A stretch of 52,846 nucleotides of DNA, taken from IMG/VR virus record IMGVR_UViG_3300047457_000684, positions 1 through 52,846 of that record, one strand, 5' to 3'. Made by a program: the position numbers and the translations under genes. The notes under the pieces are model-generated. The model did no database searches. It was not told the DNA's origin and saw only the letters and a list, made by a program, of their open reading frames with translations. The stretch is from a virus (taxonomy: Duplodnaviria; Caudoviricetes). Positions 1-52,846 of the stretch are shown piece by piece (the first letter of the stretch is position 1; each line of letters opens with the position of its first letter).

Positions 1-25
1 GTTCCACAACCATAGGCCTGGGGAA

Positions 26-424
26 TCACTGTGGAAATCCCAGGATGCACTGTGCGTCAGAAACGCTGCGCACGATTCCAGAACACCCGCCAGCACTGGC
101 CACATGGTCCAGAAAACGCTGTTGTTCCGGAGTTGCACGGCCTGTTGATGACTTCACCTCCAGCGCCACAAACTGCGCCACCCCGCCCACGGTGCGGTAG
201 CCGATCAGGTCGGAGGATCCGACGCACAGCCCCGCATGGAGCGGCCGGCCGCCACGAACCACCACATCACCAGGCCGCAGTGCTGCCGCCACGGCGCGGA
301 TATTGCCCGCTGAGACCCGTGTGGATGGCCCAGCCCAGCCGGTGCCCACGTTGTTGCGCCACAGCCTGGTGGAACCGGATCCGCATGCCAACAGGATGCG
401 TTGCTGGGTCTCGTGTTCGCTCAT
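26..424 (-). CDS. VRR-NUC domain nuclease (allele 1)
   Basis: MSEHETQQRI...LWRNNVG...GSSDLIG...FVALEVKSSTGRATPEQQRFL, a PD-(D/E)xK VRR-NUC pattern; start moved to ATG 424, matching the copy at 47476. Confidence 0.85.
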   Translation of the reverse strand: MSEHETQQRILLACGSGSTRLWRNNVGTGWAGPSTRVSAGNIRAVAAALRPGDVVVRGGRPLHAGLCVGSSDLIGYRTVGGVAQFVALEVKSSTGRATPEQQRFLDHVASAGGCSGIVRSVSDAQCILGFPQ

Positions 425-486
425 GCATGCCGGTGCTGCTGTTCCGTCAGTCAACGGATGGCGAGTGACGTTCTGTGTACCGGTCT

Positions 487-564
487 GCCAGGTCGGCCCT
501 ACCGGTAACGCGGGCGCCGTGGTCGGCTTCGATGGGGCCACCTGAAACGGTACCGAAGGCCTGG
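487..564. other. Conserved structured intergenic element (candidate ncRNA), copy 1
   Basis: Retained at 48356..48434 although both flanks differ; CCAGGTC/GGCCTGG ends pair, internal GGCTTC-GAT-GGGGCC hairpin, TACCG/CGGTA pairing. Confidence 0.4.
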
Positions 565-596
565 CCCATAACCTGCAACCAACGGCCACTAGCCGG

Positions 597-977
597 ATGC
601 GGGCTCAGATCGTCGGCACTGAACTGCTCACCCGTCGATCATTTCGCGCCGACATCTTCCAGGCCTGGCAACACCGCTGCGCGTACTGCGGCGACCCAGC
701 ACAATCACTCGATCACATCATGCCCAAGGCCAGAGGCGGCCTCACCGTCCGTTCCAACCTGGCCGCAGCATGCCTCACCTGTAACCGCCGCAAGGGGCAC
801 AGGGAGGTGTTCTCGTGGTGGCGTGAGCAGCACTTTTGGTCCGAGATCGGTCAGTCACGCCTCATCGAATGGCTGACCTCAAACAACGAACAGTCAACAG
901 CAAACCCAGGCCCTTCTTCCCCTGGATCAGGAAAACCCATCCCGCAACGATCACGCGCCCAATGTTTGCAATCGTGA
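597..977 (+). CDS. HNH endonuclease (HNH-1, intact allele)
   Basis: CAYCG...LDHIMPKARGG...NLAAACLTCNRRKG. Confidence 0.9.
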   Translation: MRAQIVGTELLTRRSFRADIFQAWQHRCAYCGDPAQSLDHIMPKARGGLTVRSNLAAACLTCNRRKGHREVFSWWREQHFWSEIGQSRLIEWLTSNNEQSTANPGPSSPGSGKPIPQRSRAQCLQS

Positions 978-1336
978 CATGACGGCCCGCTCTGCCCTCG
1001 CCATCGCGGAATCTCTGGGCATGTATTCCGGTGCAATACACCGCGCCGTATAGCTGAGATCGCCTCCTTGGATCGCCCCAGCTGCCGCCCCAGTTGATAC
1101 GCCGGCAACTCACTGGTGAGCACCAACCTCACATCATCTGGCGTCAGCGGTGGCTTATTCCCACGCCCAACGCCACGAGCATGTGGCGCACGCCCTGGTT
1201 TAGGCCTTTCACCCTGCCAGACCGTCCAGCGAAAATCGCAGTCACGGCACCACACACGCTGACGCCTGCTGCCATTCAGCAACTTTCGGCTGTCAACCAC
1301 CTTCGTGCAACTACTACCGCAGCTCTTGCAGCTCAT
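851..1336 (-). CDS. Zn-ribbon plus HTH-like DNA-binding protein
   Basis: CKSC...TKVVDSR...CRDC (NrdR-like N-terminal ribbon), extra C-terminal Cys cluster; positional homolog at 50599..50943. Confidence 0.6.
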   Translation of the reverse strand: MSCKSCGSSCTKVVDSRKLLNGSRRQRVWCRDCDFRWTVWQGERPKPGRAPHARGVGRGNKPPLTPDDVRLVLTSELPAYQLGRQLGRSKEAISAIRRGVLHRNTCPEIPRWRGQSGPSCHDCKHWARDRCGMGFPDPGEEGPGFAVDCSLFEVSHSMRRD

Positions 1337-2148
1337 TCGATTTCATGCATTGGCTTGAATGTCATTCCCAGTGATTGCACTGATCGGCCCTGTCGTATCG
1401 CAAGGCTGATCGTTGATTCATCAACATGCAAGCTACGCCCAGCATCAGCGCAGCTCTGCCATATCCTCCCGGTTTCTATGCATTTAATCCTGAAGTCACC
1501 CATTCGTCGCGGATACTCAGAAGCGATGGTATCTGCTAGTTCACGATCCTCCAGCAGGAGAAACAATGCATCAGCACTGAAACCACCTAACACCCTAGGC
1601 ATCTCACGTGCTAATCTCCGCCATGATGATCGTTTGATGTAATGATAGCTTTTGACCTTCCACGGCTTGAGGCATTCACGAATCTGTTTCCGTTTTGCCC
1701 ATGCCCATATTCTCGAAGCAGGGCAGCCTAAAATCCTAGCCGTTGATCCAAGCGTCAGCCATTCACCGTATCGACTGCCGCACCGATACCCATTACGTTT
1801 CAACCACTCAGATACTGAATTTTCAGATCGCAATGGCCACCCACATTCAACAGCTCGCTTCAGCATTCGCTGCATCATGATAGGAAACGGCACATCATCA
1901 ATCATTGATTCAAGGAAGGCAATCTCATCGGCCGACCACTTGGTGGGCGGTGTCTTCGTTGTAATCGCGTTGCCATAACCTACTGCTATTCCAGAACGTC
2001 GTAACCGTGCTGCAATAGATTTTTTTGATCGTACTGGCCAGCTATTCAGCCTCGCCAGTTGTTCCATTCGTTCCACAATCTGATTGAACGACATCCGCTG
2101 CGCTAGATCCTCCAGCGCTTTGCGTTCTTCTGGTAGCCAGTTACTCAT
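1333..2148 (-). CDS. Hypothetical DNA-binding protein (repeated Trp-helix units, HTH-like C-terminus)
   Basis: ATGA-coupled ORF; homolog at 50940..51752; C-terminal IKCIETGRIWQSCADAGRSL resembles NUMOD1-like HTH. Confidence 0.65.
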   Translation of the reverse strand: MSNWLPEERKALEDLAQRMSFNQIVERMEQLARLNSWPVRSKKSIAARLRRSGIAVGYGNAITTKTPPTKWSADEIAFLESMIDDVPFPIMMQRMLKRAVECGWPLRSENSVSEWLKRNGYRCGSRYGEWLTLGSTARILGCPASRIWAWAKRKQIRECLKPWKVKSYHYIKRSSWRRLAREMPRVLGGFSADALFLLLEDRELADTIASEYPRRMGDFRIKCIETGRIWQSCADAGRSLHVDESTISLAIRQGRSVQSLGMTFKPMHEIE

Positions 2149-2876
2149 GCCACGCCCTCCAGCTCCAGAACCCGCGCCAACGGGATCGCTGCCACTTGCG
2201 GCACCACGGCATTGCCCAGTGCCTTCAGTCGGTCCATCCCGCTGGGTATCCCATCAGAGCCTCGGCATAGCTTGGGTGTACCAGGGGCGGGTCCGTCTCT
2301 GAGCATCTCAAACTCTCTGATGTTCTGACTCCGCGCCAGTGCGGGCTGCCAATGAATCGGTTTTTCGATGCACCCTTCCATTCGGTAGCTGTCGGGGTAG
2401 GAAATAGCCCACCAGCGATTGCGAACGTGCCAAGCTCCAAGATCGGCAGCTGATACGCATGCCCATTCGCAAGCACGCCCATCATTGGCCAGCTCTCCAA
2501 GAACAGCTGCCAACCCGTCAGAACAGATGCCTGCGACGTTCTCCATGACGAGGTATCTGGCTCCCACTTCGCGAACCACTCGGAGCAGTTCGTAAAACAG
2601 GCCGGAACGGGTCTCCAATCCAATACCAGCACGTTTGCCGGCGATCGAGACGTCTTGGCAGGGAAAACCTCCACACACAACGTCAGCTGATCCTGGCTCT
2701 GGTCTAAAGGTGCAGATGTCATCGTGAATGGGGACAGTGGGCCAGTGTTTCTTCAGGATGCGTTGGCAATAGGGATCCCGTTCCACAAACTGAACGGTCT
2801 GGAATCCACCGAGCCAGCGGGCGGCGAGGCTGAAACCGCCGATGCCGGAGAAGGTGTCAAGCAGGCGGAGGGTCAT
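2145..2876 (-). CDS. C5-cytosine DNA methyltransferase, main (alpha-like) polypeptide
   Basis: Motifs I (FSGIGG), IV (GFPCQD), VI (ENV), VIII (HVRNRW) and X (LKALGNAVVP); motif IX not found in this frame. Confidence 0.9.
   Translation of the reverse strand: MTLRLLDTFSGIGGFSLAARWLGGFQTVQFVERDPYCQRILKKHWPTVPIHDDICTFRPEPGSADVVCGGFPCQDVSIAGKRAGIGLETRSGLFYELLRVVREVGARYLVMENVAGICSDGLAAVLGELANDGRACEWACVSAADLGAWHVRNRWWAISYPDSYRMEGCIEKPIHWQPALARSQNIREFEMLRDGPAPGTPKLCRGSDGIPSGMDRLKALGNAVVPQVAAIPLARVLELEGVA
2225..2722 (-). CDS. Overlapping alternative-frame polypeptide (beta-like subunit) of the C5 MTase
   Basis: Nested same-strand ORF with FPTPTATEWKG and LVHPSYAEALMGYPAGWTD, resembling TRD and motif IX. 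Confidence 0.65.
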   Translation of the reverse strand: MTSAPLDQSQDQLTLCVEVFPAKTSRSPANVLVLDWRPVPACFTNCSEWFAKWEPDTSSWRTSQASVLTGWQLFLESWPMMGVLANGHAYQLPILELGTFAIAGGLFPTPTATEWKGASKNRFIGSPHWRGVRTSESLRCSETDPPLVHPSYAEALMGYPAGWTD

Positions 2877-2909
2877 GCCGCCACCTCCGCCTGCGCTGCG
2901 ACAAAACCT

Positions 2910-3143
2910 CTACATTTGCTCGTCGGTGTCGCTGAATTGTTGCTCGTACTCGGCGATGTGGTCCTCTGTCGCCTGCTCAGACAGGCAACTGAGCTGCAGA
3001 TCCAAGAACGTGGTGAGAGCGGCAAGATTGGCCACCATTTCAGACGCTTCAGGGCTGCTGGCATCACGAGCCAGCTGGGGGATCCAGTGAGCAATCCAGT
3101 CTTTGAGCGACTTCTTGGCGTTGAAGATCGTCGGGTGATACAT
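2910..3143 (-). CDS. Hypothetical protein (allele 1 only)
   Basis: MYHPTIFNAKKSLKDWIAHW...; start lies in one 29-bp repeat unit, ORF can extend to 3233. Confidence 0.45.
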   Translation of the reverse strand: MYHPTIFNAKKSLKDWIAHWIPQLARDASSPEASEMVANLAALTTFLDLQLSCLSEQATEDHIAEYEQQFSDTDEQM

Positions 3144-3207
3144 GGCAAGTTGAAGATCGTCGGGTGATACATGGCAAGTTGAAGATCGTCGGGTGATACA
3201 TGGCAAG
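3121..3207. repeat. Perfect tandem repeat, 3 x 29 bp (TTGAAGATCGTCGGGTGATACATGGCAAG)
   Basis: Units at 3121, 3150 and 3179, no spacers. Confidence 0.95.
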
Positions 3208-3237
3208 CGGTTAACGCTGCCTTCTATTGCCATTGGC

Positions 3238-4620
3238 TCATGCCACCCTCCCCCAGTGCCCCTTCGCCTGCCGCGCCGCCATCACATGCCGGGCCCAGCC
3301 ACGGGGGTTCTTCATGCCGCGACGTTTCCCGATATCCACCAGCTGCTCCAGCGTCTGCGCCTGGCCCTGTTCACGTTTCGCCTCTCGCCGCTGCACTTCC
3401 ACAAGCTCACCATCCACATGCACAAGCTCTCGACGCTCAGGCTGGAACTCGTGGCCGCAGTCCGGGCAAATCTGTTTCGCTGATGGCATCGCGGCGAAAC
3501 ACTTCGGGCAGACCCGCACGCTCGGGGCTGCCTGCCGGTCGCGCTTCGTCACGCCCTCCAGCGTCCATTCCCTCTCTTCGAGGTGATGGCCCAGTCGCTG
3601 GGTGTTCCCCACGTGGTCGAGGATCACCGCTTGCTTGCCCTCCTGTGGCCGCAGACAACGGCCGATCATCTGCAGGTGCAGGCTCAGCGATTGCGTTGGG
3701 CGCAGCAGAATGCAGCCGCTCACCGATGGCACGTCCACGCCCTCGCCGATCAGTGCGCAGCTGGTGAGCACCTTCAACCGGCCGGCGCCCAGGTCCGACA
3801 GAAGACGCTCCCGAGTGGCCGCATCCATGGTCCCGTCGATCGACGCGGCGGCCACGCCGTGACGATTGAACAACGCCGCCACCGCTGCGGCGTGGCTGAT
3901 GCTGCAGCAGAACGCAATCGCCGTCTGGCCCTCCAGATACTTCCGGTAGTGCGTTAGACAGTCGCCCATCGCTTGCCCCGTCTGCAGGGCCTGGCCGGCC
4001 TGCGTCATGTCGAAGTCGCCCATCCGCTTTCGCAGGCCACGCGCATCAAATCCGATCGGTGGCGCCAGCACACGCGCCGGGGCCAGATACCCAGCAGCCG
4101 TCAGCTCAGCTGGACTGGGGCCCATCACCATCGCTGAATACCACTCGCCAAGGCCTCGGCCATCACAACGGACCGGCGTTGCCGTCACACCCAGAACACG
4201 GGCACTGGAGTAGTGCGCCAGCACCTTCGCCCACGTGCCCGCGTTGCTGTGGTGGGCCTCATCCACCACCAACAGGTTGAACAACTCCTGGGGGATTCGA
4301 TGCAGCCGTCTGGCCAGGGTCTGCACTGAGGCCACCTGCACCGATGCCGACAGGTCCATCCCATGGCCCGCAGCGATCAGCCCATGGCGCACACCAAGGC
4401 CCCGCAGACTGGCGCTCGCCTGCCGTAGCAGTTCCTGCCGATGCACCAAGATGCAGATCCGTGAGCCCTTAGCCGCAGCCTGTTCGGCGATGTGGCTGAA
4501 TACCACAGTCTTACCGCCACCGGTCGGCAGCACGAACAGCACCGATCGATTCCTCGCCTGGTAAGCCTGGCGGATCTTGGCGACGGCTTCGGCCTGGTAG
4601 GGGCGGAGGGTGAGGGTCAT
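3238..4620 (-). CDS. SF2 (DEAH) DNA helicase with C-terminal Zn ribbon
   Basis: LPTGGGKT, DEAHH, GVTATP, QMIGRCLR, CPKC...CPDC. Confidence 0.95.
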   Translation of the reverse strand: MTLTLRPYQAEAVAKIRQAYQARNRSVLFVLPTGGGKTVVFSHIAEQAAAKGSRICILVHRQELLRQASASLRGLGVRHGLIAAGHGMDLSASVQVASVQTLARRLHRIPQELFNLLVVDEAHHSNAGTWAKVLAHYSSARVLGVTATPVRCDGRGLGEWYSAMVMGPSPAELTAAGYLAPARVLAPPIGFDARGLRKRMGDFDMTQAGQALQTGQAMGDCLTHYRKYLEGQTAIAFCCSISHAAAVAALFNRHGVAAASIDGTMDAATRERLLSDLGAGRLKVLTSCALIGEGVDVPSVSGCILLRPTQSLSLHLQMIGRCLRPQEGKQAVILDHVGNTQRLGHHLEEREWTLEGVTKRDRQAAPSVRVCPKCFAAMPSAKQICPDCGHEFQPERRELVHVDGELVEVQRREAKREQGQAQTLEQLVDIGKRRGMKNPRGWARHVMAARQAKGHWGRVA

Positions 4621-8743: not shown

Positions 8744-9092
8744 GTCTTTGTGCTTCCGGAATCGCAGGGCTAGGATTCAGGCATCGGGCACAGCTACGCT
8801 GGCCCCGCCGGGTCGGTCCTACCCGCAAGGATGGACGCGGTGTCGGGGTTACGAGTGGCCCTGGCTGAAACCGCATCGGAGGCCCGGTTTCACGGGTTGG
8901 GGTCTATGGGATTTCCCATAGACCCCTTCTCGTTGGTGGGGTCGGCTCAGATCTCAATGCAGCCATAGGTCCGTCGGATTTCCGACGGACGTACGCCGCG
9001 ATACAAAACCCAGGCCCTTGACGTGCTGCGGTCTGCTGTGCTTATGCTGCAGATGTCGGCAGCGATGCCGGCGCTCACTCGCTGCATTCACC

Positions 9093-21202: not shown

Positions 21203-21241
21203 GGTGGTCCATAGGCTGATGCAGTAACGCTTGCTGAGCTA

Positions 21242-39942: not shown

Positions 39943-41217
39943 CTACGCCGCATCGCCGCTCGTGCCCTGGCGAACCTGGATTTCAACGCGGTTGGGATCA
40001 CCGATGTAAACAATCTCCGCGACGAACTCCAGCGCGAGCACCCGGAGTTCTTCATCGGTGGCGGCATCAAGAGCGCCCGATCTCATGAACACCTCAGCCA
40101 GCCCTTGCCAGTCAGGTCCTGATTCCGGTGGCGGCATTACCAACGACCGCTCCAGCCGTTCGATTGAATCATCCAGCCCCGGCACCCCCTGGTCCTGCAG
40201 CGCCCGTAGCTGCTCCAGCTGCCGCTGACGTTGCTGTTGCTGCTGATCCATAACCGGCGCTGCCGGTGCAGCGGCAACGGCGCCCAGCTGTTGTGCAGCG
40301 CTGCGCAATGCATCCACCAGTTGCCCGCGAATCTTGAACTCCGCCAAGCCACGCGCGTACCACTGGCACAAGTTGTTGCTGCAACGAAGCCGTGGTTTGC
40401 CTGCTGCCTGGATGTAGTGCATCCGCTTCCCGCAGCATCCGCAGCGCACCAACCCGGTAAGCAGGCGCACGGTTCGTGGTGACCGGATGCGCACCGCCTT
40501 GCGCTGGTCCAGCAGACGGCGCGCTCGATGCCATTCATCCCAGCTGATCAACGCCTGCACCCGATCGGGCTCGTTGTTCACCACGCCGCGCAGGATCGGG
40601 TTATTCAGCCACCGCCCCAGGCCTGGAATAGACCAGTCGAGGCGGCGCTGGCGGATCGTGCGGCCCAGCATGAACTCGTTGGCCTCCAGCGCATCCCACA
40701 GCTGCCGCGCCGCCTGAAACTCCGTTGGGTGTGGCGCCACCTGCGAGCCGTCGTAGATGTAGCCGTATGGCACACGGCCGCAGGCGTAGTGACCCTCGGC
40801 CTTGCGGCGTTTCAGGCCGTTGCGCACGTTGATTGATTTGATCATCGAATCGACCTCGTTCACGGTGGAGAGCACACCGGTCAGCAGCCGCCCTGCTGGA
40901 TCCGCTAGGTCGCTGGGCGTGCCATCCAGAAACCGCACGGTCACGCCTCGCCGGGCGCACATCCGCAGGAATGGGAGCTCTTCGCCGCGGCGACTGAGGC
41001 GCGACTGAGACACGGCGATCACCTCACGGCAGCGACCGGCCGCTACCAGGGCCTGCAGTTCCTCCCAGCCAGGGCGGCGTGCATCCTCCCGGTAGGCGGT
41101 GCCGCGCTCACGAATCACGCGATCGCAGCCGGCCGCCATCAGCTGCTGCACCTGGGCATCGATGCTGATGTCCTGCTCAGCCTTGTCGGTGGAAACCCTG
41201 GCGTAGCCAACGATCAC
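39943..41217 (-). CDS. Large serine recombinase (integrase)
   Basis: GYARVST, SRLSR, PYGY recombinase domain, LLTGLVRCGCCG Zn ribbon. Confidence 0.95.
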   Translation of the reverse strand: MIVGYARVSTDKAEQDISIDAQVQQLMAAGCDRVIRERGTAYREDARRPGWEELQALVAAGRCREVIAVSQSRLSRRGEELPFLRMCARRGVTVRFLDGTPSDLADPAGRLLTGVLSTVNEVDSMIKSINVRNGLKRRKAEGHYACGRVPYGYIYDGSQVAPHPTEFQAARQLWDALEANEFMLGRTIRQRRLDWSIPGLGRWLNNPILRGVVNNEPDRVQALISWDEWHRARRLLDQRKAVRIRSPRTVRLLTGLVRCGCCGKRMHYIQAAGKPRLRCSNNLCQWYARGLAEFKIRGQLVDALRSAAQQLGAVAAAPAAPVMDQQQQQRQRQLEQLRALQDQGVPGLDDSIERLERSLVMPPPESGPDWQGLAEVFMRSGALDAATDEELRVLALEFVAEIVYIGDPNRVEIQVRQGTSGDAA

Positions 41218-41381: not shown

Positions 41382-41894
41382 TCACCCCTTGCTCGGCTCC
41401 ACCGTTTCCGCTAGGTGGTATCGCCCAGTCTCCGCATAACCACGTAGCGGCACCGCTGACATCTCCAGGAACGTCAGCTGACCAATCCGCATCCCAGGCC
41501 ACAGCGGCACCCGATGGAGCTGGCGGCTATTGACCAGCTCCAGTGTGATCACGCCATGGAATCCGGGATCAATCCATCCGGCCAATAGGTGTTCGATCGC
41601 CTCACGTGCCCGCGAGGATTTCAGGGAGAATTGAGCGGAGAGGTGATTAGGCACCCGCACATACTCCAGCGTGTGGCCTAGTACGAACTGCCCCGGCACT
41701 AGCCAGTACGGATCCTCTGCTGTGTGCCGCTTTAGTGGATATGGCACCAGTTCTGGTGATTCGGCAGATTCAATGAGCAGCGTGTCTCCAAGCCGTACAT
41801 CAAGGCTGGCGGGGTTGATGAGTTCGGGCAGGAATGGTGTCACCATGCCTGATTCACACAGGCTGGTGATCTGCCAGTCGGCTAGTGGGCTCAT
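41382..41894 (-). CDS. dcd: dCTP deaminase
   Basis: NPASLDVRLG, KSSRAR, AGWIDPGFHG.ITLE, IGQL.F; start moved to ATG 41894. Confidence 0.92.
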   Translation of the reverse strand: MSPLADWQITSLCESGMVTPFLPELINPASLDVRLGDTLLIESAESPELVPYPLKRHTAEDPYWLVPGQFVLGHTLEYVRVPNHLSAQFSLKSSRAREAIEHLLAGWIDPGFHGVITLELVNSRQLHRVPLWPGMRIGQLTFLEMSAVPLRGYAETGRYHLAETVEPSKG

Positions 41895-42610
41895 TGTTGG
41901 TTGGTTGGCACCGGCAGGGCATGGTGGGGGAGCCAGTGGGAGAAGCAGTATTTGAGCTGCGGCATTCCGGTGTTGGAATGATCCATCAATCTCCAGTCGC
42001 CCTCTACGATCCCGCAGAGCCAACACCTCCCCTCCGCGTCACAATCCTCAGGCCCCGGCAGCCGCTCAGCGACGGGCACCGGCTTGATGGCGGGGCGGCA
42101 CCAGCGATGCGACACAGGAACAACTGCATCAAGCAGTCGATCGGCCAGCTCGATGTTACCAACGGTGCGACCACCAGAAGACCGAGCGACGCACAGGATT
42201 CTCTCAAAGTGGCCCCGCAGTTCAGGTAGCCAGTCGTGTTCCAGCGGCCCCTGCGGCTCGGGCTGGGCTAGGCGCTCCAGGAGGTCTGCGGCGCGGGTTA
42301 GACGGCTGACGCGAAGGTGAGACTCTTTCTCAGGGTCGCCCTGATGAATGCTGTAAATGTTCTCAGGGTCAAGGCCACGCATTTTCTGATACTCATTGAC
42401 AAAATGACGCAGCTCGGCCACTAACTCACTTACCTCTCCATTGGCAGTCGGCTCGGGCTGGGCCAGTTCGGCGCGGGCGCGGTTAAAAATCTCTCGGCAC
42501 TTCCACATATCACGCTGGTGATAGTGCCCGCAGTTGACGCCCCCAACAAGGGAGCCAATCACGTCCAGCAACTCAGCGCACAGCGCTCGCCAGTCGGTTG
42601 GTGTGGTCAT
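41891..42610 (-). CDS. Hypothetical modular phage protein
   Basis: TDWRALCAEL...VAERLPGPEDCD...HWLP. Confidence 0.7.
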   Translation of the reverse strand: MTTPTDWRALCAELLDVIGSLVGGVNCGHYHQRDMWKCREIFNRARAELAQPEPTANGEVSELVAELRHFVNEYQKMRGLDPENIYSIHQGDPEKESHLRVSRLTRAADLLERLAQPEPQGPLEHDWLPELRGHFERILCVARSSGGRTVGNIELADRLLDAVVPVSHRWCRPAIKPVPVAERLPGPEDCDAEGRCWLCGIVEGDWRLMDHSNTGMPQLKYCFSHWLPHHALPVPTNQQ

Positions 42611-46326: not shown

Positions 46327-47035
46327 GCTCCGCAGGGCCGTAGCGGCCGACCTGATCGCCGCGAATCACCCGGATCATCTCGGCCAGTGCTGCCATCTCA
46401 AGCTCCAGCTCGCCGGGGCTGAGCAGCGCATCACCGAGCACGATCCGTCTCAGCATCTGCTGCCGGCCAGCGGACTGCGACGGATAGGCCTCGGTGAACG
46501 CCTCCATGGCTTCGCGTGGCGCCCATCCCTGTTCACGCGCCAAATCCTGAAGAAGGTCCGACAGCTGTCGGGTTGCGTGGCTCGATTCAGCTGGCGACAT
46601 CGCCTCACCGAGATACGGCAGCGTGAGCCGGCCAGCGGCCACCATCGCCAGATCGCCCAGATCCAGCGGGTGGCCAGCGTCGTCAGCCTTGGGCAGCCAC
46701 ACCGCAGCGTCAAGCCACTCCGGGTGAACGCCCCAGTTTGAGTGAGGGCCAAACTGCCTGATGGCGGCTTCTGGCCCTTGGGTCTGCCAGGTCCAGATCG
46801 CTCGATTGGCCTCCGCGAGCGAGTCGAGGTATTTCAAACCCACCGGCCGAACGTGGCGCGCATTCCGCAGGCGGCTGAGCTGGCCGCCAACGATGCCGGT
46901 TGGCTCGCCGTACGCCCACTCCAGAATCGTCGCCATCCGTTCCTGGCTGAGCGGCACCAGCCAGCGGCCGACCAGCTGGCCGATGGCGAGGACGCCACGG
47001 TTCAGGCGCTCCTGTGCGGTTTCGGATCTGTCCAT
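46286..47035 (-). CDS. Hypothetical protein, possible HTH regulator
   Basis: LSQERMATIL...GGQLSRLRNA weakly XRE-like; start uncertain. Confidence 0.55.
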   Translation of the reverse strand: MDRSETAQERLNRGVLAIGQLVGRWLVPLSQERMATILEWAYGEPTGIVGGQLSRLRNARHVRPVGLKYLDSLAEANRAIWTWQTQGPEAAIRQFGPHSNWGVHPEWLDAAVWLPKADDAGHPLDLGDLAMVAAGRLTLPYLGEAMSPAESSHATRQLSDLLQDLAREQGWAPREAMEAFTEAYPSQSAGRQQMLRRIVLGDALLSPGELELEMAALAEMIRVIRGDQVGRYGPAELRAELLSARRSRE

Positions 47036-47077
47036 GGTTGGGAAACGCTGTGGTTCCACAACCATAGGCCTGGGGAA

Positions 47078-47476
47078 TCACTGTGGAAATCCCAGGATGC
47101 GCTGTGCGTCAGAAACGCTGCGCACGATTCCAGAACACCCGCCAGCACTGGCCACATGGTCCAGAAAACGCTGCTGTTCCGGAGTTGCACGGCCTGTTGA
47201 TGACTTCACCTCCAGCGCCACGAACTGCGCGATGCCGTTCGTGGTGCGGTAGCCGATCAGGTCGGAGGATCCGACGCACAGCCCCGCATGGAGCGGTCGC
47301 CCGTTACGAACCACCACGTCACCAGGCCGCAGTGCTGCTGCTACGGCGCGGATATTGCCCGCTGAGACCCGTGTGGATGGCCCAGCCCAGCCGGTGCCGA
47401 CGTTGTTTCTCCACAGCCGGGCGTCTCCATGACCGCAGGCCATGAGGATGCGCTGCTGGGTTTCGTGTTCGCTCAT
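47078..47476 (-). CDS. VRR-NUC domain nuclease (allele 2)
   Basis: Same length as and near-identical to 26..424. Confidence 0.85.
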   Translation of the reverse strand: MSEHETQQRILMACGHGDARLWRNNVGTGWAGPSTRVSAGNIRAVAAALRPGDVVVRNGRPLHAGLCVGSSDLIGYRTTNGIAQFVALEVKSSTGRATPEQQRFLDHVASAGGCSGIVRSVSDAQRILGFPQ

Positions 47477-47681
47477 GCCGTCCGTGCGTTTCCGACAGTC
47501 AACGGATGGCGAGTGACGTTCTGTGAACCGGCCCTGAGGTGGCGGTGATGCCGTCAGGCTGTGCGCAGCAACAGTAGGCAAACGAAACTATTCCATCGAA
47601 ATGACGGCAGTTAGCTATACGTTAGTAGCGTATAGCATAGCGGCATGTTATATTTTCTAGGTTGATAGAATCGCAAATCAA

Positions 47682-48302
47682 ATGGCGGATCCCCGCAGCG
47701 CTGAGTACAGCCGCCGCTACCGCGAGCGCAAGGCCGGCCGGCTGCCTCCTCCCACGCTGCCTAAATGCCTGACATGCGGTAAGGAGCACAGGGGCGCACG
47801 CGGTCAATACTGCTCTAGATGCTGGCTGAAAACAGAAGAAGGGCGAGAATGGCAGCGGAATAGAGTTAAAGACTTTCGAGTCAGCAATCCTGAGTCAACG
47901 GCAAGAAATACGTTTGAAAACAACCGCAAGCGGGGGGCATTCCGTCGGGCTGGTCGCCGCAAAGCACTGGTGCCACTAACGCGAGAGCAGCTAAGAGCGC
48001 GATTTGCGTTGTTTGGAGATTCATGCGCCTACTGCGGTAAAGGTGGGAAGGTGTCAATTGATCATGTCATGCCACTGAGCAAAGGCGGGCTAGACGAATA
48101 CAGAAACGTTGTGCCAGCTTGCAAAACATGCAACAGCAGCAAGAACGCAAAAGACGTACAAGCTTGGTATTTACAGCAGCCGTTCTTTTCGCAGGCAAGA
48201 TGGGCAAGGCTACAGCGTCACTGTGTAGAAAGAGTTTGCGGTCAATTGTCATTGGCAATTTCGGATGCGACGCAACAAGCCAGATTGGAAGCTGTCACCT
48301 GA
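47682..48302 (+). CDS. HNH endonuclease (HNH-2) with N-terminal Zn finger
   Basis: CLTCG...CSRC; CAYCG...IDHVMPLSKGG...NVVPACKTCNSSK. Confidence 0.9.
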   Translation: MADPRSAEYSRRYRERKAGRLPPPTLPKCLTCGKEHRGARGQYCSRCWLKTEEGREWQRNRVKDFRVSNPESTARNTFENNRKRGAFRRAGRRKALVPLTREQLRARFALFGDSCAYCGKGGKVSIDHVMPLSKGGLDEYRNVVPACKTCNSSKNAKDVQAWYLQQPFFSQARWARLQRHCVERVCGQLSLAISDATQQARLEAVT

Positions 48303-48310
48303 CCAATTTC

Positions 48311-48333
48311 GCCCCTCACCCGAGGGGCTTTTT
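48311..48333 (+). terminator. Intrinsic terminator of HNH-2
   Basis: GCCCCTC-ACCC-GAGGGGC-TTTTT. Confidence 0.85.
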
Positions 48334-48355
48334 CATGCCGTGCCACACTGGCACC

Positions 48356-48434
48356 GCCAGGTCGGCCCTACCGGTAACGCGGGCGCCGTGGTCGGCTTCG
48401 ATGGGGCCGATCTGTAACGGTACCGAAGGCCTGG
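48356..48434. other. Conserved structured intergenic element, copy 2
   Basis: Homolog of 487..564 with a longer hairpin GGTCGGCTTC-GAT-GGGGCCGATC. Confidence 0.4.
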
Positions 48435-48437
48435 TTA

Positions 48438-49916
48438 CTACGCAGGCAATGACAGCTGCTGCCACTGGCTGGCTGTGACTGTGCGGGCAACGCGGCGTTT
48501 TGGCCTCGCTGCAGCAGGCACAGCAGGACAGGTAATCGCCTCTAGCTGGTGCATGCCAGCTCCCATTGGCGCCGGGGCCATAGGGATCACGGCATCGGGC
48601 TTGGCACGCCGCAGGATGTTCACCGCTGCGTTGTGGTCGGCATTCATCGTGTGCCCGCAGCTGGTGCAGCGGAACAGCGACTGGCTGACGCGGCTGGCAC
48701 CGTCAACCACGCCGCACGCTGGACACGAACGGCTTGTATTGGTAGGGCTGACGCGCTCCACCGTGCGACCCAGGTCGCCAGCCTTCGCCTCCAGCATCGA
48801 ATACAGCCCGCCAATCCCTGCATCATGCAGTGCACGGTTCAGGCCAGCCTTCGACGCTGCATTGTTCGGCAGGTATCCGGTCCCATCCTTGTTCGGCTTT
48901 GCCGCCGGCCGCCGCACCATGTTCGCCAGCTTTAGATCCTCAACCACCACCGTCCCGTAGGTACGCAGCAGGTAGGTAGTGGTCTTGTGAGCGAACAGCT
49001 TTCGCGTGCGCCGGATTCGCTCATGCAGCAGCGCCAACTTCGCCACGGTCTTTTGCCAGTTGGCGCTGCCCTTCTGCTGCCGTGCCATCTGCTGTTGCAG
49101 CCGCTTCAGCTTGCGCAGCCCAGCAGCCAAAGCCGCAGGGCCGTCAATGTGCTTCCCGGTGCTGGTGGTGAGCGTGTGCGCCACGCCAGCATCGATACCA
49201 ACCGCTAACGACGTCTCGCGCACCTTCGGCGCTGCCACGTTGCCCACCAGCAGCAGATACCAGCCGGAGGGCTCGCGGCTCACCCTGAAGGTGCAGCACT
49301 CCAGACCGTCGGGCCATCGCCGACCATCACGGTTGCCCTTAATCCGCAGCTCGCCCAACACCGGCAACTTCACGATGTCGCCATGCACCGCCGTGGATTT
49401 CTTGCAGTCCTGATCGCTCAGTGTGGTGATCGGAAACCGATCAGACTTGAATCGCGGCATCTTCCGCTTGCCCTTGCGATACTCGCCCCACGCCGTAGCA
49501 AGAGCCTTCAGCGTACCGCGCAGCAGATTGTTGGGGCAGCCCTGCAGCTCCGGCCAGCTGGGGTGGTTCTTCTTGGCGAAGAACGACGCCAGGCTGAAAT
49601 AGCTGTCATTGCTCAGCCGCGGCTGCCGGTAATCCTGCGGGATCGGACAGCTCAGGCCGGCGCGACGATGCGTCCTGATCGTGCTGTATGGGATGGCCTG
49701 CCAGCTGTCGTCCGGGGCCTTCTGCCAGCGGTAGGACCACGGCACCGGGCAGCAGGGCGCTAGGGCCTTATCGGCTTTGTTGTAGTGACTGAAGGCCTCG
49801 ATCTCCTGCAGCAGGGCTAGGCCGTAGTTCCAAACCCGCCGCTGGAGCAGCAGCCAGGCCTCCAGCTGAGCCTCCTGGCTGCGGGTTGGGTAGGCTCTAA
49901 ACTCCAATGTGCGCAT
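48438..49916 (-). CDS. TnpB/Cas12-like RNA-guided RuvC nuclease, 492 aa (compact type V / V-U-like effector)
   Basis: MRTLEFRAYPT N-terminus; RuvC-I VGIDAG, RuvC-II VVEDL, CPAC...CTSC Zn finger, RuvC-III NADHNAAVNI; AAGGGG RBS before ATG 49916. Confidence 0.92.
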   Translation of the reverse strand: MRTLEFRAYPTRSQEAQLEAWLLLQRRVWNYGLALLQEIEAFSHYNKADKALAPCCPVPWSYRWQKAPDDSWQAIPYSTIRTHRRAGLSCPIPQDYRQPRLSNDSYFSLASFFAKKNHPSWPELQGCPNNLLRGTLKALATAWGEYRKGKRKMPRFKSDRFPITTLSDQDCKKSTAVHGDIVKLPVLGELRIKGNRDGRRWPDGLECCTFRVSREPSGWYLLLVGNVAAPKVRETSLAVGIDAGVAHTLTTSTGKHIDGPAALAAGLRKLKRLQQQMARQQKGSANWQKTVAKLALLHERIRRTRKLFAHKTTTYLLRTYGTVVVEDLKLANMVRRPAAKPNKDGTGYLPNNAASKAGLNRALHDAGIGGLYSMLEAKAGDLGRTVERVSPTNTSRSCPACGVVDGASRVSQSLFRCTSCGHTMNADHNAAVNILRRAKPDAVIPMAPAPMGAGMHQLEAITCPAVPAAARPKRRVARTVTASQWQQLSLPA

Positions 49917-49922
49917 GGCCCC

Positions 49923-49951
49923 TTGCCATCTGACGCGCATCGTACTACGAT
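49923..49951 (+). promoter_or_regulatory. Sigma70-type promoter for the RHH gene and possibly the array
   Basis: TTGCCA-17 nt-TACGAT; ATG 49958 lies 7 nt after the -10 box. Confidence 0.7.
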
Positions 49952-49957
49952 TGGAAC

Positions 49958-50137
49958 ATGGCTGAGGGGGTTCGGATCCAGCTTGTCGTTCCTGAAGGAC
50001 TGGCGACCGCTCTACGCGAGCGTGCAAAAGCCGAAGGGCGCACCGTCTCCAATCTGGGGGCGTTCCTACTGGAAACCGCACTCCGTCAACTACCTCCCCT
50101 GTTCGGGGGCTCGCCTGGGTTGGACCGGGAGAGTTGA
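49958..50137 (+). CDS. Ribbon-helix-helix (CopG/Arc-like) regulator, 59 aa, probably leaderless (not in ORF track)
   Basis: Manual translation MAEGVRIQLVVPEGLATALRERAKAEGRTVSNLGAFLLETALRQLPPLFGGSPGLDRES. Confidence 0.85.
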   Translation: MAEGVRIQLVVPEGLATALRERAKAEGRTVSNLGAFLLETALRQLPPLFGGSPGLDRES

Positions 50138-50140
50138 AAC

Positions 50141-50260
50141 GCCTGCCCCTGGCCGCTTGCGGTGTCAGCAGGAAGCCACCTCAGTGGCATCTGCTCCCAT
50201 GGGGAGCACCCATCCCACAACGATCACATGCCCTCGATCGTTAGCTCATTTCCTGAGCTG
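50141..50260 (+). ncRNA. Candidate tracr/scaffold RNA
   Basis: Consecutive hairpins: CCTGC...GCAGG, GCCAC/GTGGC, TGCTCCC/GGGAGCA, AACGATC/GATCGTT, AGCTCA/TGAGCT; CCCATC complementary to the repeat's GATGGG. Confidence 0.45.
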
Positions 50261-50312
50261 CGCGCAGATGGCCCTGAAAGCCACTGCACTGCAACGGTTT
50301 TCAACACAGGGG
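50258..50312 (+). promoter_or_regulatory. CRISPR leader-like sequence
   Basis: CTGCGCGCAG palindrome and TGAAAGCC...GGTTTTCA dyad just before the first repeat; recalled as resembling cyanobacterial leaders. Confidence 0.5.
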
Positions 50313-50465
50313 GTCTCTACTGTTGCTCTTGGGCAATAAGAAAGGGCTGATTCAGCAGTCTCTACTGTTGCTCTTGGGCAATTGATGGGCAACGGTGGGC
50401 AAGTGAGTGCTCGACACCAGGCAGGCCTGGTCTCTACTGTTGCTCTTGGGCAATTGATGGGCAAC
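50313..50465 (+). CRISPR. Mini CRISPR array, repeat GTCTCTACTGTTGCTCTTGGGCAATTGATGGGCAAC (36 bp)
   Basis: Truncated repeat 50313..50337 (first 25 nt), 20-nt spacer, full repeat 50358..50393, 36-nt spacer 50394..50429, full repeat 50430..50465. Confidence 0.88.
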
Positions 50466-50627
50466 CTCACCGTCCGTTCCAACCTGGCCGCAGCATGCCT
50501 CACCTGTAACCGCCGCAAGGGGCACAGGGAGGTGTTCTCGTGGTGGCGTGAGCAACCCTACTGGAGCGAGCTTGGGCAGGCCCGCCTGATCGACTGGATC
50601 ACACATGCGTCCAGGTCTTGCGGTTGA
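50466..50627 (+). pseudogene. 3' remnant of HNH-1
   Basis: 50466..50554 identical to 741..829; lacks the CAYC and DH motifs. Confidence 0.85.
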
Positions 50628-50943
50628 CGATCCTGCTCACCGTGGCGGGGGCAATGCCGTATTCGGCAGCCAGCTGGTAGTTCGGCACGCCATCAGCAGC
50701 CTGCTGCCGCATCCGCCTTACGTCTTCCTCCAGCAGCACCGCAGCACCATTACGGCTGCCCGGCGCCTTCGGTCGCCCCAGCTGCGTGCCTGGCACGGGG
50801 CCAGGCTTGGTTGAGAACGGCCGCTCGATGGTGCGCTGCCTGAACCCGCAGCGACACCGATACCAGCGGTGCGTGCCATCGCTACGACGTTCGGTAACAA
50901 TCACCCGTAGCGCATTCACTGCGCCGCACTTCGGGCAGTTCAT
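50599..50943 (-). CDS. Zn-ribbon plus HTH protein (allele 2 counterpart of 851..1336)
   Basis: CPKC...YRCRC; LAAEYGIAPATVSRIV. Confidence 0.7.
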   Translation of the reverse strand: MNCPKCGAVNALRVIVTERRSDGTHRWYRCRCGFRQRTIERPFSTKPGPVPGTQLGRPKAPGSRNGAAVLLEEDVRRMRQQAADGVPNYQLAAEYGIAPATVSRIVNRKTWTHV

Positions 50944-51752
50944 TTACGACGCAATAATTCAAACGTCAGTCCCAACACTGGTACTGACCGGCCTTGCACA
51001 ATCGCATTGCTAATCGTTGCATGTGATACATGCAACTCACTTGCAGCAGCAGTCTGACTAGGCCATACCCTCCCAGTCTCTATGCACCGCACTCGATAAT
51101 CACTACTCCGCAATGGATGCTCACTGGCAACCTGTTCGGCCAACTCACGATCTTCCAGTAACGCGTATAACTGATCTACGCTGTATCCTCCAAGGATATG
51201 AGGCATCTCATGCGCAAGACGTCGCCATGCTGACCGCTTGACATACCACACATTACCAACCCTCAACGGCTCCAGTATCCTCTTAACTCCGTGCTGATGT
51301 ATCCATTTATTGACGCGTGAGTTTTTACAATTCAATATCTCAGCAACGACTCCAGTTGTTACCCACTCACCATTACGACCGCTGCACTGGTGACCCAGCT
51401 TGTATAGACGCACTGCAATCGCCTTAGGTGTGCGTACCGGCCAGCCGTGTTCCGCCGCTCGCTTTGCCATACGTTTGCACAGCAACGGAAACGGGACATC
51501 ACCAACGATTTTCTCAAGATACGCAGTCTCATCAGCTAACCATTTAGCCGCTGGTATTTTCGCTGTAATCGCGTTGCCATAACCTACTGCTATCCCAGAC
51601 CGTCGTAACCGTGCTGCAATAGATTTCCGCGTTCGTACTGGCCAGCTATTCACCTGGGCTAGCTCAGTCATCTGTTCCACGATCTCATCGAATCGCATCC
51701 GCCGCGCCAGATCCTCCAGCGCTTCCCGTTCTTCTGGCAGCCAGTTACTCAT
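50940..51752 (-). CDS. Hypothetical DNA-binding protein (allele 2 homolog of 1333..2148)
   Basis: Shared MSNWLPEER...SIAARLRRSGIAVGYGNAIT...LLEDRELA. Confidence 0.7.
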   Translation of the reverse strand: MSNWLPEEREALEDLARRMRFDEIVEQMTELAQVNSWPVRTRKSIAARLRRSGIAVGYGNAITAKIPAAKWLADETAYLEKIVGDVPFPLLCKRMAKRAAEHGWPVRTPKAIAVRLYKLGHQCSGRNGEWVTTGVVAEILNCKNSRVNKWIHQHGVKRILEPLRVGNVWYVKRSAWRRLAHEMPHILGGYSVDQLYALLEDRELAEQVASEHPLRSSDYRVRCIETGRVWPSQTAAASELHVSHATISNAIVQGRSVPVLGLTFELLRRK

Positions 51753-52734
51753 GCCACCCTCCCCCGTTAAACAGTGTTTGTTGCTCATTGCCAATGCAGG
51801 CAGGCGACAGCCAAAGCCGCTCGCGGCGGCCGTTGAAGCTGTTAGTGCTGTAGCCAGCGCCTCCGCCCGCCTTGCCCTCAGTCACGGTCCAGCCGTGGCT
51901 CAGCAGCGGGTCGTGTTCGTCGTCGTAGCCGCAGAGGATGATCCGCAGCTCACGCGGTGCAGTGATGCACCACTCGCGCACGGCGATGGCGACATCACCA
52001 CCGGCATGGGCATAGAGATCGCCGCTGGTGGCGTAGGGCGGGTCAAGGAATATGGCGCGGCTGCCATCTCCTCCTGTCCCCGATCGGATTACGGATGGTT
52101 TCACCACCCGTTCCCATGATCCGCAGGTAATGCGCACGCGATGCAGCCGATTCGCCAACGCTTTCAAGTAGGCCTGCAGTTGGCCTCTCCCGGCGTTGCC
52201 CAGGTGGGGCAGCTCTCGATTCACGCCTTGCCCGGCGTCGCCCAGGTGGGGCAGCTCTCGATTCACGCCTCTCCCGGCGTCGCCTACTTTCCGCAGGTGG
52301 CCATCGACGACCCGCCACGGGCCAGGGCCGAACGGGTCACCGATGCCGCAGGCCAAGACGTATAGCCACCAGCCTGCGGCCTTCGCGTCGTGCGCTTCAG
52401 GATCGCCCTCCAGCCATGCCACAAGGTCGGGCGTTCGGCGTTCTTGTAGCCAGGCCAACCGGGCGTGATAGTCGATCTCCGCCACCGGACCCCATGCCGC
52501 AGCGGCGACGGCATCAGGGCTTAGCTGAATCGCGCGCCAGGCATTGATCAGCCAGCCGTCGACATCGTTCAGGGTCTCGACGCGGCGGCCCGTGAATGGC
52601 GGGCGGGCCAGCAACACGGCGGCAGATCCGGCGAACGGCTCGACATAGCCGGACGGATCACCCAGCGCCTGCCAGATGCGCGGCGCGGCGCGGCGTTTGC
52701 CGCCGAAATATGGAAACGGTGCAGCGAGAGTCAT
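51745..52734 (-). CDS. N6-adenine DNA methyltransferase (D12/Dam-like)
   Basis: PYFGGK, EPFAGS, ND, FLDPPY. Confidence 0.9.
   Translation of the reverse strand: MTLAAPFPYFGGKRRAAPRIWQALGDPSGYVEPFAGSAAVLLARPPFTGRRVETLNDVDGWLINAWRAIQLSPDAVAAAAWGPVAEIDYHARLAWLQERRTPDLVAWLEGDPEAHDAKAAGWWLYVLACGIGDPFGPGPWRVVDGHLRKVGDAGRGVNRELPHLGDAGQGVNRELPHLGNAGRGQLQAYLKALANRLHRVRITCGSWERVVKPSVIRSGTGGDGSRAIFLDPPYATSGDLYAHAGGDVAIAVREWCITAPRELRIILCGYDDEHDPLLSHGWTVTEGKAGGGAGYSTNSFNGRRERLWLSPACIGNEQQTLFNGGGWHE
52189..52284. repeat. In-frame 42-bp tandem repeat (about 2.3 copies) inside the adenine MTase
   Basis: Encodes GDAGRGVNRELPHL-GDAGQGVNRELPHL-GNAG. Confidence 0.9.
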
Positions 52735-52846
52735 GCCACCCTCCCCCAGTGCCCCTTCGCCTGCCGCGCCGCCATCACATGCCGGGCCCAGCCACGGGGG
52801 TTCTTCATGCCGCGACGTTTCCCGATATCCACCAGCTGCTCCAGCG
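52731..52846 (-). CDS. 3' end of the SF2 helicase (partial, second copy)
   Basis: Identical to 3238..3353. Confidence 0.9.
   Translation of the reverse strand, partial: LEQLVDIGKRRGMKNPRGWARHVMAARQAKGHWGRVA

Follow-up and report, generated by a model that had tools for sequence, protein, structure and literature searches.

The 52,846-bp virus record IMGVR_UViG_3300047457_000684 (Duplodnaviria; Caudoviricetes), which we analyzed over its whole length and refer to as the window, carries near its right end a cassette that we assign, from its gene content, to the type V-U2 (C2c8) CRISPR-Cas units and whose carrier we take to be a freshwater Cyanobium-type cyanophage. The cassette comprises a TnpB-like nuclease gene, a small ribbon-helix-helix (RHH) gene, a structured RNA and a short array of repeats. 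The last repeat abuts the remnant of an HNH endonuclease gene, and the DNA beyond it is an exact copy of the interior of an intact HNH gene in a cassette-free haplotype at the other end of the record. A transcript reading through that repeat could carry a guide against the cassette-free allele, and the cassette could spread by RNA-guided homing. The features of the locus and of its cassette-free counterpart are as follows, in coordinates of the window:

48435-50465, unstranded: whole cassette, replacing 565-740 of the cassette-free (empty) haplotype (self-BLAST and a joining contig of run X1)
48438-49916 (coding 48441-49916), minus strand: gene for a C2c8 TnpB-like nuclease of 492 amino acids (aa)
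49923-49951, plus strand: promoter-like site TTGCCA-17-TACGAT within the 41 nt between the divergent genes, a consensus match only (1 found versus 0.3 expected)
49958-50137, plus strand: RHH gene (Arc/CopG-like), 59 aa; Pfam RHH_5, E 1.2e-12
50114-50221, plus strand: structured scaffold RNA, with five helices at 50114-50208 (~95 nt) and the tail CCCATCCCACAAC at 50209-50221
50222-50312, plus strand: leader between scaffold and array, homologous to the gene-side leader of the relative L010
50313-50337, plus strand: truncated first repeat, 25 nt, then a 20-nt spacer at 50338-50357
50358-50393, plus strand: repeat 2, 36 nt, then a 36-nt spacer at 50394-50429
50430-50465, plus strand: terminal repeat, 36 nt, with the cassette's right boundary at its 3' end
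50466-50554, plus strand: 89-nt tract, the first ~20-36 nt being the putative flank-derived guide
50466-50627, plus strand: HNH 3' remnant, without the N-terminal part that includes the DH...GG motif
597-977, plus strand: HNH-1, the intact gene of the cassette-free haplotype (Pfam HNH), aligned with 15 homologous loci

The inferred product of the nuclease gene contains the Pfam domains OrfB_IS605, Cas12f1-like_TNB and HTH_OrfB_IS605, and the closest solved structures are those of ISDra2 TnpB (E 9e-26). Its score exceeded the cut-offs of the NCBIfam models V_cas_c2c8 (NF038192; 362.4 bits versus 350) and guided_TnpB (NF040570; 239.3 bits versus 100) and fell short of those of IS200_TnpB (167.4 versus 425) and IS607_TnpB (129 versus 350). 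The adjacent CRISPR array that goes with the C2c8 designation is present, as three repeats at 50313-50465. At the level of sequence, the RuvC D/E/D motifs (GIDAG, VVVEDL and NADHNAA) and the two CxxC pairs of a zinc ribbon are intact. The original prediction had likened the locus to Cas12 systems; the effector is indeed a type V nuclease, but of the TnpB-like C2c8/V-U2 kind and not a standard Cas12. No match was found anywhere in the record to Cas1 (PF01867) or to the Y1 transposase TnpA (PF01797), the latter a search in which control genomes did match. The RHH gene diverges from the nuclease gene across a 41-nt intergenic region and runs at its 3' end into the first part of the scaffold RNA. 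The same divergent layout is described for the Arc repressors of some IS605 elements (10.64898/2026.09.24.754181). No terminator-like sites were found across 49700-50800.

The structured RNA that follows is conserved throughout the family. We collected 17 close loci, with 63-99% protein identity (six viral, eight metagenomic and three from Cyanobium-type genome bins), and each of the 17 has one or more copies of the scaffold, whose core motif occurs once in the window; the RHH gene is found in 12 of them. For 24 aligned copies RNAalifold predicted 26 pairs, 14 of which show compensatory changes. Many of these pairs are G-U and would be A-C mismatches on the other strand, which fixes the plus strand as the transcribed one. 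The repeats of the relatives always lie 3' of the scaffold on the same strand, and in all of them they end in ...GCAAC beside the spacer. The proposed order of 5' repeat and 3' guide thus has the support of a conserved structured RNA upstream of the array on the plus strand, of its G-U pairs and of the ...GCAAC repeat ends. We infer a putative tracrRNA-like (trans-activating CRISPR RNA-like) or omega-RNA-like role for the scaffold. A search of 47000-52846 against Rfam at permissive thresholds returned no family, and a search with the scaffold motif recovered nothing beyond five contigs already known. An RNAduplex scan for an anti-repeat within the scaffold was swamped by trivial self matches, with just a GAC:GTC pairing constant across loci, and the candidate was set aside.

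The copies of the 36-nt repeat (GTCTCTACTGTTGCTCTTGGGCAATTGATGGGCAAC) at 50358 and 50430 are 100% identical, and self-BLAST confirmed the perfect match reported to begin directly after the second of them: 50466-50554 is the same as 741-829, 89 nt without a difference, inside the intact HNH gene. The junction is ambiguous by 1 nt, since a C is common to positions 740 and 50465, the preceding base being different. The sequences quoted earlier as standing 5' of the two copies were also correct, ...AGAGGCGGC preceding 741 and ...GATGGGCAAC preceding 50466. The putative target in the empty allele begins at 741, directly 3' of the codons GGC GGC (735-740), which encode the conserved Gly-Gly of the HNH motif. 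Chance cannot account for an exact 89-nt repeat in 52.8 kb. Nor does selection explain it, because homologous HNH genes vary at many synonymous sites in this region. To the right of the junction the identity of 89/89 gives way abruptly to one of about two-thirds, which extends through what is left of the HNH remnant; beyond it the alleles are unrelated. The break at 829/830 is a recombination breakpoint and shows that the cassette was transferred by homologous recombination; the cassette of one lineage, together with its 89-nt flank, now lies within the gene of another lineage, or the reverse. Taken in its entirety, the 89-nt tract was probably co-converted.

That both alleles are represented in one record reflects the way the record is built. 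The record is complete, and self-BLAST showed that its terminal regions are diverged copies of one region of the genome: a left copy (1-3353) that is the empty haplotype and a right copy (47053-52846) that is the occupied one. The genome is probably ~49.5 kb and circular or permuted, having been assembled once around and then into the second haplotype; the record itself is classed as linear. The self-BLAST matches between the two copies are these:

1-483 and 47053-47531: 91% identity
487-564 and 48356-48434: 96% identity, the right-hand copy being the conserved, unstranded 79-nt element that forms the left flank of the cassette
740-872 and 50465-50597: 90% identity
1883-2153 and 51487-51757: 81% identity
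3238-3353 and 52731-52846 (the last 116 nt): 100% identity

The occupied copy differs from the empty one in carrying the cassette (48435-50465) where the latter has 565-740 and in an extra HNH gene, inserted at 47532-48355. This second HNH endonuclease gene (47682-48302, 206 aa) lies between a VRR-NUC gene and the 79-nt element and is itself a presence/absence polymorphism, because a contig of run X5 skips the insert (joint 47532 to 48354).

Since the record visibly concatenates two haplotypes, the junction might be an assembly artefact, in which the repeat and the HNH gene were misjoined through the 36-nt repeat and the 89-nt stretch that the haplotypes have in common. The terminal repeat matches repeat 2 and the 89 nt after it match the other allele, for which reason short k-mers could not phase the junction. 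None of the contig pieces listed crosses 50460-50524, a result that speaks neither for nor against the right junction. Against an artefact, the independent assembly of run X1 contains 0.97 of the words sampled from 48300-50700, and its contigs tile the occupied copy with zero mismatches. The left junction is bridged by a piece of that run (48379-49271), and a single contig represents the empty allele by linking 48434 straight to 50465. Depth on the cassette side (27.9-30.1) equals that on the right flank (28.5) and differs from that of the empty-allele contig (14). Comparable junctions exist, furthermore, in two relatives, L011 and L004. We therefore consider a misjoined junction highly improbable. 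Because contigs of run X1 represent each haplotype, at differing depth, both must have co-occurred in one sample. Two marks of a homing element are thus found together: occupied and empty alleles that co-occur, and flanking markers that are co-converted up to a sharp drop in identity.

The relatives, which come from Cyanobium-type phages and hosts, are built of the same modules in several arrangements. In the host-type loci L013, L014, L020 and L021 the scaffold and an array of three to at least ten repeats diverge from the nuclease gene, and there is no RHH gene; the arrays of L013, L020 and L021 consist of five to at least ten repeats of ~28 nt separated by spacers of 33-36 nt. Most phage cassettes face outward on both sides, with the RHH gene and a scaffold on one side and the nuclease gene, a second scaffold and a mini-array of one to five repeats on the other. 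The second scaffold lies 3' of the nuclease gene in nine relatives and is missing from that position in the window, where, as in L009 and L012, the RHH gene, scaffold and array are confined to one side. Derivation of the window's layout by inversion between two scaffold copies was considered and dropped, L009, L012 and the host-type loci being equally divergent. Across the family, spacers range from 18 to 41 nt and repeats from one to at least ten per relative. L009 has a nuclease 99% identical to that of the window and the same repeat, yet other spacers, from which it follows that the arrays turn over. At the other extreme L007 combines an intact 489-aa nuclease with a scaffold, a single repeat and zero spacers, and since it has no spacer it can, if it works at all, be guided only by flank sequence.

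Cassettes of the family occupy at least six different places in related phage genomes, and for three of them, the window included, an occupied site could be compared with an empty one:

Window pair: junction ...GGGCAAC|CTCACC
L011 versus the window at 21.2 kb: junction ...GGGCAA|TCCATAGGCTGA, the last repeat being degenerate
L004 versus the window at 23.34 kb: junction ...GAAGCAAC|GATCCGTAGCC

The survey of homologous cassettes that had been proposed as a check came out in favor of the prediction on this point: in all three comparisons, L011 and L004 among them, the array-side boundary lies no more than 2 nt (0-2) from the 3' end of a repeat. A common right flank also follows directly after GGGYAAC in L010 and L016, whose arrays differ. 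Because the boundary recurs in relatives and L007 lacks any spacer, we regard the succession of repeat and flank as belonging to the family and not as a chance feature of one contig; its geometry is that of the right end of a TnpB element. By its geometry, an arrangement with the flank as guide and the empty site as target would fit all three comparisons. Empty sites for L003, L006, L007, L008, L010/L015/L016, L012 and L022 were sought among seven phage genomes, none of which was close enough.

Several further observations concern the ends of the cassettes. An 8-bp sequence, TCCATAGG, flanks the L011 cassette on both sides (~215-222 and 2531-2538) and occurs once in the empty site of the window (21206-21213), so that the pair looks like a target-site duplication. 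The motif CCRTAGSCTGA was examined as a repeated insertion motif and was not enriched (6 matches versus 3.6 expected). In several relatives the scaffold on the side of the RHH gene carries a short tail ending in ...CAAC, after which the flank begins. L015 (~760-900) and L010 (~2590-2620), both located at one site behind the terminase gene, have in common an outermost 12-nt tail, TACTYGAYCAAC, beside the flank; in L015 another ~80 nt separate this tail from the scaffold, which gives the impression of a unit added on the scaffold side.

The left side of the cassette and the HNH gene itself have features of their own. The 79-nt element has a weaker third copy at 8807-8859 and reaches depths of up to 230 in metagenome contigs, and its end (48434/48435) is followed by at least four different continuations, seen as loose ends in runs X1, X3 and X4; it looks like a recurrent boundary of module exchange. 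Within the empty-allele HNH-1, at its 3' end, 936-960 agrees with the scaffold tail and the bases after it (50209-50233) at 22 of 25 positions (CCCATCCC.CAACGATCAC...). A hairpin-like TTCC...GGAA precedes this 25-mer, and a second match to it arose in none of 100 shuffles. The segment may be the scar of an earlier cassette insertion, or else a former flank that was retained in the leader of the cassette. Comparison of the HNH-1 region with the records of five relatives gave no useful match.

Targets of the spacers were sought in several collections. IMG/VR yielded no match for spacer 2 of the window, for the 41-nt spacer of L009, for the first 24 nt of the putative guide or for the window-type repeat, and the host arrays of L020 and L013 had no match among GenBank phages. 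When 60 spacer and flank strings were compared with seven related phage genomes, the only hits were self matches and 741-776. One spacer did find a match, and close at hand. The leader-proximal spacer of L011 (2316-2348) matches, at 31 of 33 positions, a small open reading frame (ORF) next to its own cassette (2636-2668); this ORF starts ~40 nt past the cassette, and the match, whose 5' context is GGCCT, lies ~150 nt beyond. Spacer 1 of L011 would be a second guide aimed at the neighborhood of its own cassette. GGYGG, seemingly common to the window and L011 sites, was entertained as a protospacer-adjacent motif (PAM) or target-adjacent motif (TAM) and was dropped, since TCCATAGG is preceded by CTGAG in the left-flank copy of L011 and CCGTT stands at the L004 site; in the HNH gene the motif is no more than the Gly-Gly codons.

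RNA-guided homing of the TnpB kind, with the repeat plus flank as the guide, is the mechanism that these observations support best, and we put it forward tentatively, as a good possibility that falls somewhat short of being probable. What favors it is the recurrence of the boundary at repeat ends, the intact nuclease of a relative that has no spacer, the chimeric flank and the co-occurrence of the alleles. Transcription would start at the promoter of the RHH gene and pass through the scaffold and array into the flank, so that the last repeat and the first ~20-36 nt of the truncated HNH gene would serve as a guide, in the manner of a TnpB element's right end. What would spare the occupied genome is its repeat end ...GGGCAAC, which takes the place of the ...GGCGGC found just before the target of the empty allele. 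During co-infection of a cell, the nuclease would cut the intact HNH-1 allele from 741 onward, and the break would be repaired off the occupied genome by the RecT-like protein and SSB of the phage, copying the cassette in what would be non-restorative homing. Both repair genes are encoded nearby, as had been claimed: SSB and a RecT-like annealase (PHROG 561, E 2e-47) lie at 44.7-46.2 kb, 2-5 kb from the cassette, and the VRR-NUC nuclease gene is likewise within 1-5 kb.

Several findings weigh against homing by a flank-derived guide. At the left side, 176 bp of the empty allele (565-740) are missing, so that, measured against this allele, the event was no single clean cut-and-paste. At its left end the cassette has nothing more than the stop codon of the nuclease gene (48438-48440) and the 3 nt that separate it from the junction, without a guide module. 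The 89-nt tract exceeds the length of a guide and therefore reflects the history of recombination and not selection for a guide. Every array has a terminal repeat followed by DNA that is not array. In run X1 the empty allele is still present, with a depth roughly half that of the occupied allele. A PAM or TAM could not be derived, because protospacers were not found for the window or L009 spacers, and the 5' contexts of the three empty sites disagree (GGCGGC; GGTGG, with CTGAG in the left copy of L011; and CCGTT). In the literature we found no demonstration of nuclease activity for V-U2 effectors, and a view quoted in the paper on phage CL131 is that V-U effectors are possibly regulatory (PMC6293099). 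The homing proposal of the original prediction has accordingly come through in part: the identity of the cassette, its orientation, the boundary at the repeat end, the co-occurring alleles and the recombination breakpoint were borne out, and the junction-spanning RNA, a permissive GGCGGC and cutting by the nuclease stay putative, as does the idea that cutting drives the recombination.

Other explanations of the junction must be set beside RNA-guided homing. A broader and rather less likely version of it is that the unit is self-propagating, its repeat doubling as a transposon-like end, so that any DNA past the last repeat would be read as a guide, siblings would be cut and RecT/SSB would copy the cassette in. 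On such an account most relatives would also read the flank beyond their second, outward-facing scaffold, and terminal spacers of ~36 nt could serve as homology arms of recombineering length for jumps to new sites; jumps of this kind would explain both the repeat-end boundaries at three or more sites and the 8-bp duplication of L011. Arrays would grow without Cas1 by keeping former flank guides inside the array, which fits the match of L011 spacer 1 to a neighboring gene and the resemblance of 936-960 to the scaffold tail. At the opposite pole, the cassette could be passive. A guide-free mechanism acting at repeat ends, for example a transposase supplied in trans, would have set the boundary, ordinary homologous recombination would spread the cassette, the junction transcript would be a by-product, and the array would act only in interference with other phages or host elements. 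The 829/830 breakpoint needs homologous recombination only, and RecT and SSB are present; the many different sequences after the 79-nt element suggest a general point of module exchange; and support from a PAM was not found. Yet three independent insertion sites have their boundary at a repeat end, which implies non-random ends; a Y1 transposase was looked for in the phage without success; and L007 retains an intact nuclease without any spacer. On balance we judge the passive account somewhat unlikely.

The repeat could also have been fused to phage DNA by a crossover between a spacer and its protospacer. In this account, which the original prediction had offered as its alternative, an anti-HNH spacer would have been present in the array of a host or of some other phage, recombination inside that spacer would have produced the junction, and the guide would be a consequence. 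Recombination of this sort is reportedly seen in staphylococci. It predicts a junction exactly at the repeat end without a trailer, as is observed; HNH genes are at their most conserved where the target lies, a likely place for a spacer to be aimed; and host-type loci hold long arrays of the same family. The 89-nt identity, however, exceeds any spacer of the family (18-41 nt), and an array with such a spacer was not found in the collections searched. L011 and L004, moreover, look like near-precise insertions at single sites, with flanks that are contiguous in the empty genome and, in L011, the 8-bp duplication, which a one-sided crossover would not lead one to expect; this origin strikes us as unlikely. 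Finally, the terminal guide might serve for exclusion or regulation, cutting or silencing intact HNH-1 alleles in competing phages, with no gene conversion of the cassette. Mini-arrays borne by viruses and targeting related viruses are known and offer a precedent, and the guide matches the co-occurring rival allele exactly. A further precedent is that some small type V effectors are described as binding DNA without cutting it (PMC11013384). Such a function, which is hard to reconcile with the intact RuvC motifs and with a chimeric flank that shows the cassette to have been moved by recombination, appears to us quite improbable.

A few features elsewhere in the window bear on the phage as a whole. 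A large serine recombinase gene (Resolvase and Zn_ribbon_recom; 39943-41217, minus strand) suggests a temperate phage, and a dCTP deaminase-like gene is located at 41382-42026. The left haplotype has three exact tandem repeats of 29/30 nt at 3120-3207; the other has three 42-nt tandem repeats within a methyltransferase-like ORF at 52183-52308.

IS605 elements of bacterial chromosomes and plasmids are known to home by means of TnpB with guides derived from flanking DNA. Type V-U2 loci have been described too but, to our knowledge, have not been characterized functionally. TnpB has been described as a homing nuclease that uses flank-derived guides (10.1101/2023.03.14.532601; 10.1101/2023.11.20.567912), its homing is also treated in PMC11870625, and non-restorative homing into co-infecting phages is termed theoretically possible in PMC13565253. 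In the literature on TnpB, bacteriophage homing and co-infection we found no such case reported. The cassette resembles the TnpB of IS200/IS605 elements such as ISDra2 in its RuvC and zinc-ribbon nuclease of the same fold, in a scaffold RNA that would end at the boundary of the element so that flanking DNA would become the guide, in an element that interrupts its own putative target and so would separate self from non-self, and, as described for some IS605 elements, in the divergent Arc-like RHH gene. It departs from them in that cassette and phage are without TnpA and the IS200_TnpB and IS607_TnpB cut-offs were failed, in that the scaffold of the window lies upstream of the gene and divergent from it instead of overlapping its 3' end, and in that true repeat-spacer units stand between scaffold and flank in a carrier that is a phage genome.

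Among CRISPR systems, a close likeness is the V-U2 locus of the cyanophage vB_AphaS-CL131, to whose protein the effector of the window is 31.7% identical over 88% of its length; that locus, too, is described as cyanobacterial or cyanophage-borne, with 36-nt repeats and no cas1 (PMC6293099). According to the same description it differs in having a ten-spacer array and no tracrRNA reported by its authors (PMC6293099), whereas the cassette of the window has a covarying scaffold RNA, an RHH gene, a mini-array of three repeats and an occupied/empty pair and belongs to a family found at six or more sites. TranC systems are presented as nucleases derived from TnpB in which the omega RNA has been split functionally into tracrRNA and crRNA (CRISPR RNA; PMC13565253). 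The present family, which ranges from one repeat (L007, omega-RNA-like) to long arrays (L020), has an anatomy compatible with theirs, in a comparison made by description only; a phage context and homing do not figure in that description of TranC (PMC13565253). Type V-K CRISPR-associated transposons (CASTs) are mobile elements, likewise cyanobacterial, in which an att-targeting, truncated repeat-spacer unit supplies a guide reserved for the self site, placed at the array's end or past it (10.1101/2021.02.06.429022). In their case the spacer is described as lying inside the transposon, and an inactive Cas12k directs Tn7-type transposition (10.1101/2021.02.06.429022); in the cassette, by contrast, the flank itself would be the guide, the nuclease looks active and there are no transposition genes. 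Free-standing homing endonucleases of phages (intronless homing), such as T4 Seg/Mob, are said to spread between related co-infecting phages by a double-strand break and co-conversion of flanking markers (PMC13565253), and the window shows a chimeric flank beside the insertion. Unlike theirs, recognition here would be by RNA, and the gene that the cassette disrupted is itself of the protein homing-endonuclease type (HNH).

The locus thus combines, in one place, a natural pair of occupied and empty alleles from one population, a last repeat at the position of the right end of a TnpB element and a scar of recombination. The family offers a compact nuclease (at most ~490 aa) together with a defined scaffold RNA, from which rules for guides and PAMs might be worked out. 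If the junction guide works, the cassette would be an RNA-guided gene drive between phages, and it would also be a concrete intermediate for the emergence of CRISPR arrays out of transposon guide RNAs. Should the unit prove, furthermore, to be self-propagating, the family would represent a living intermediate on the path from omega-RNA guides to CRISPR arrays.

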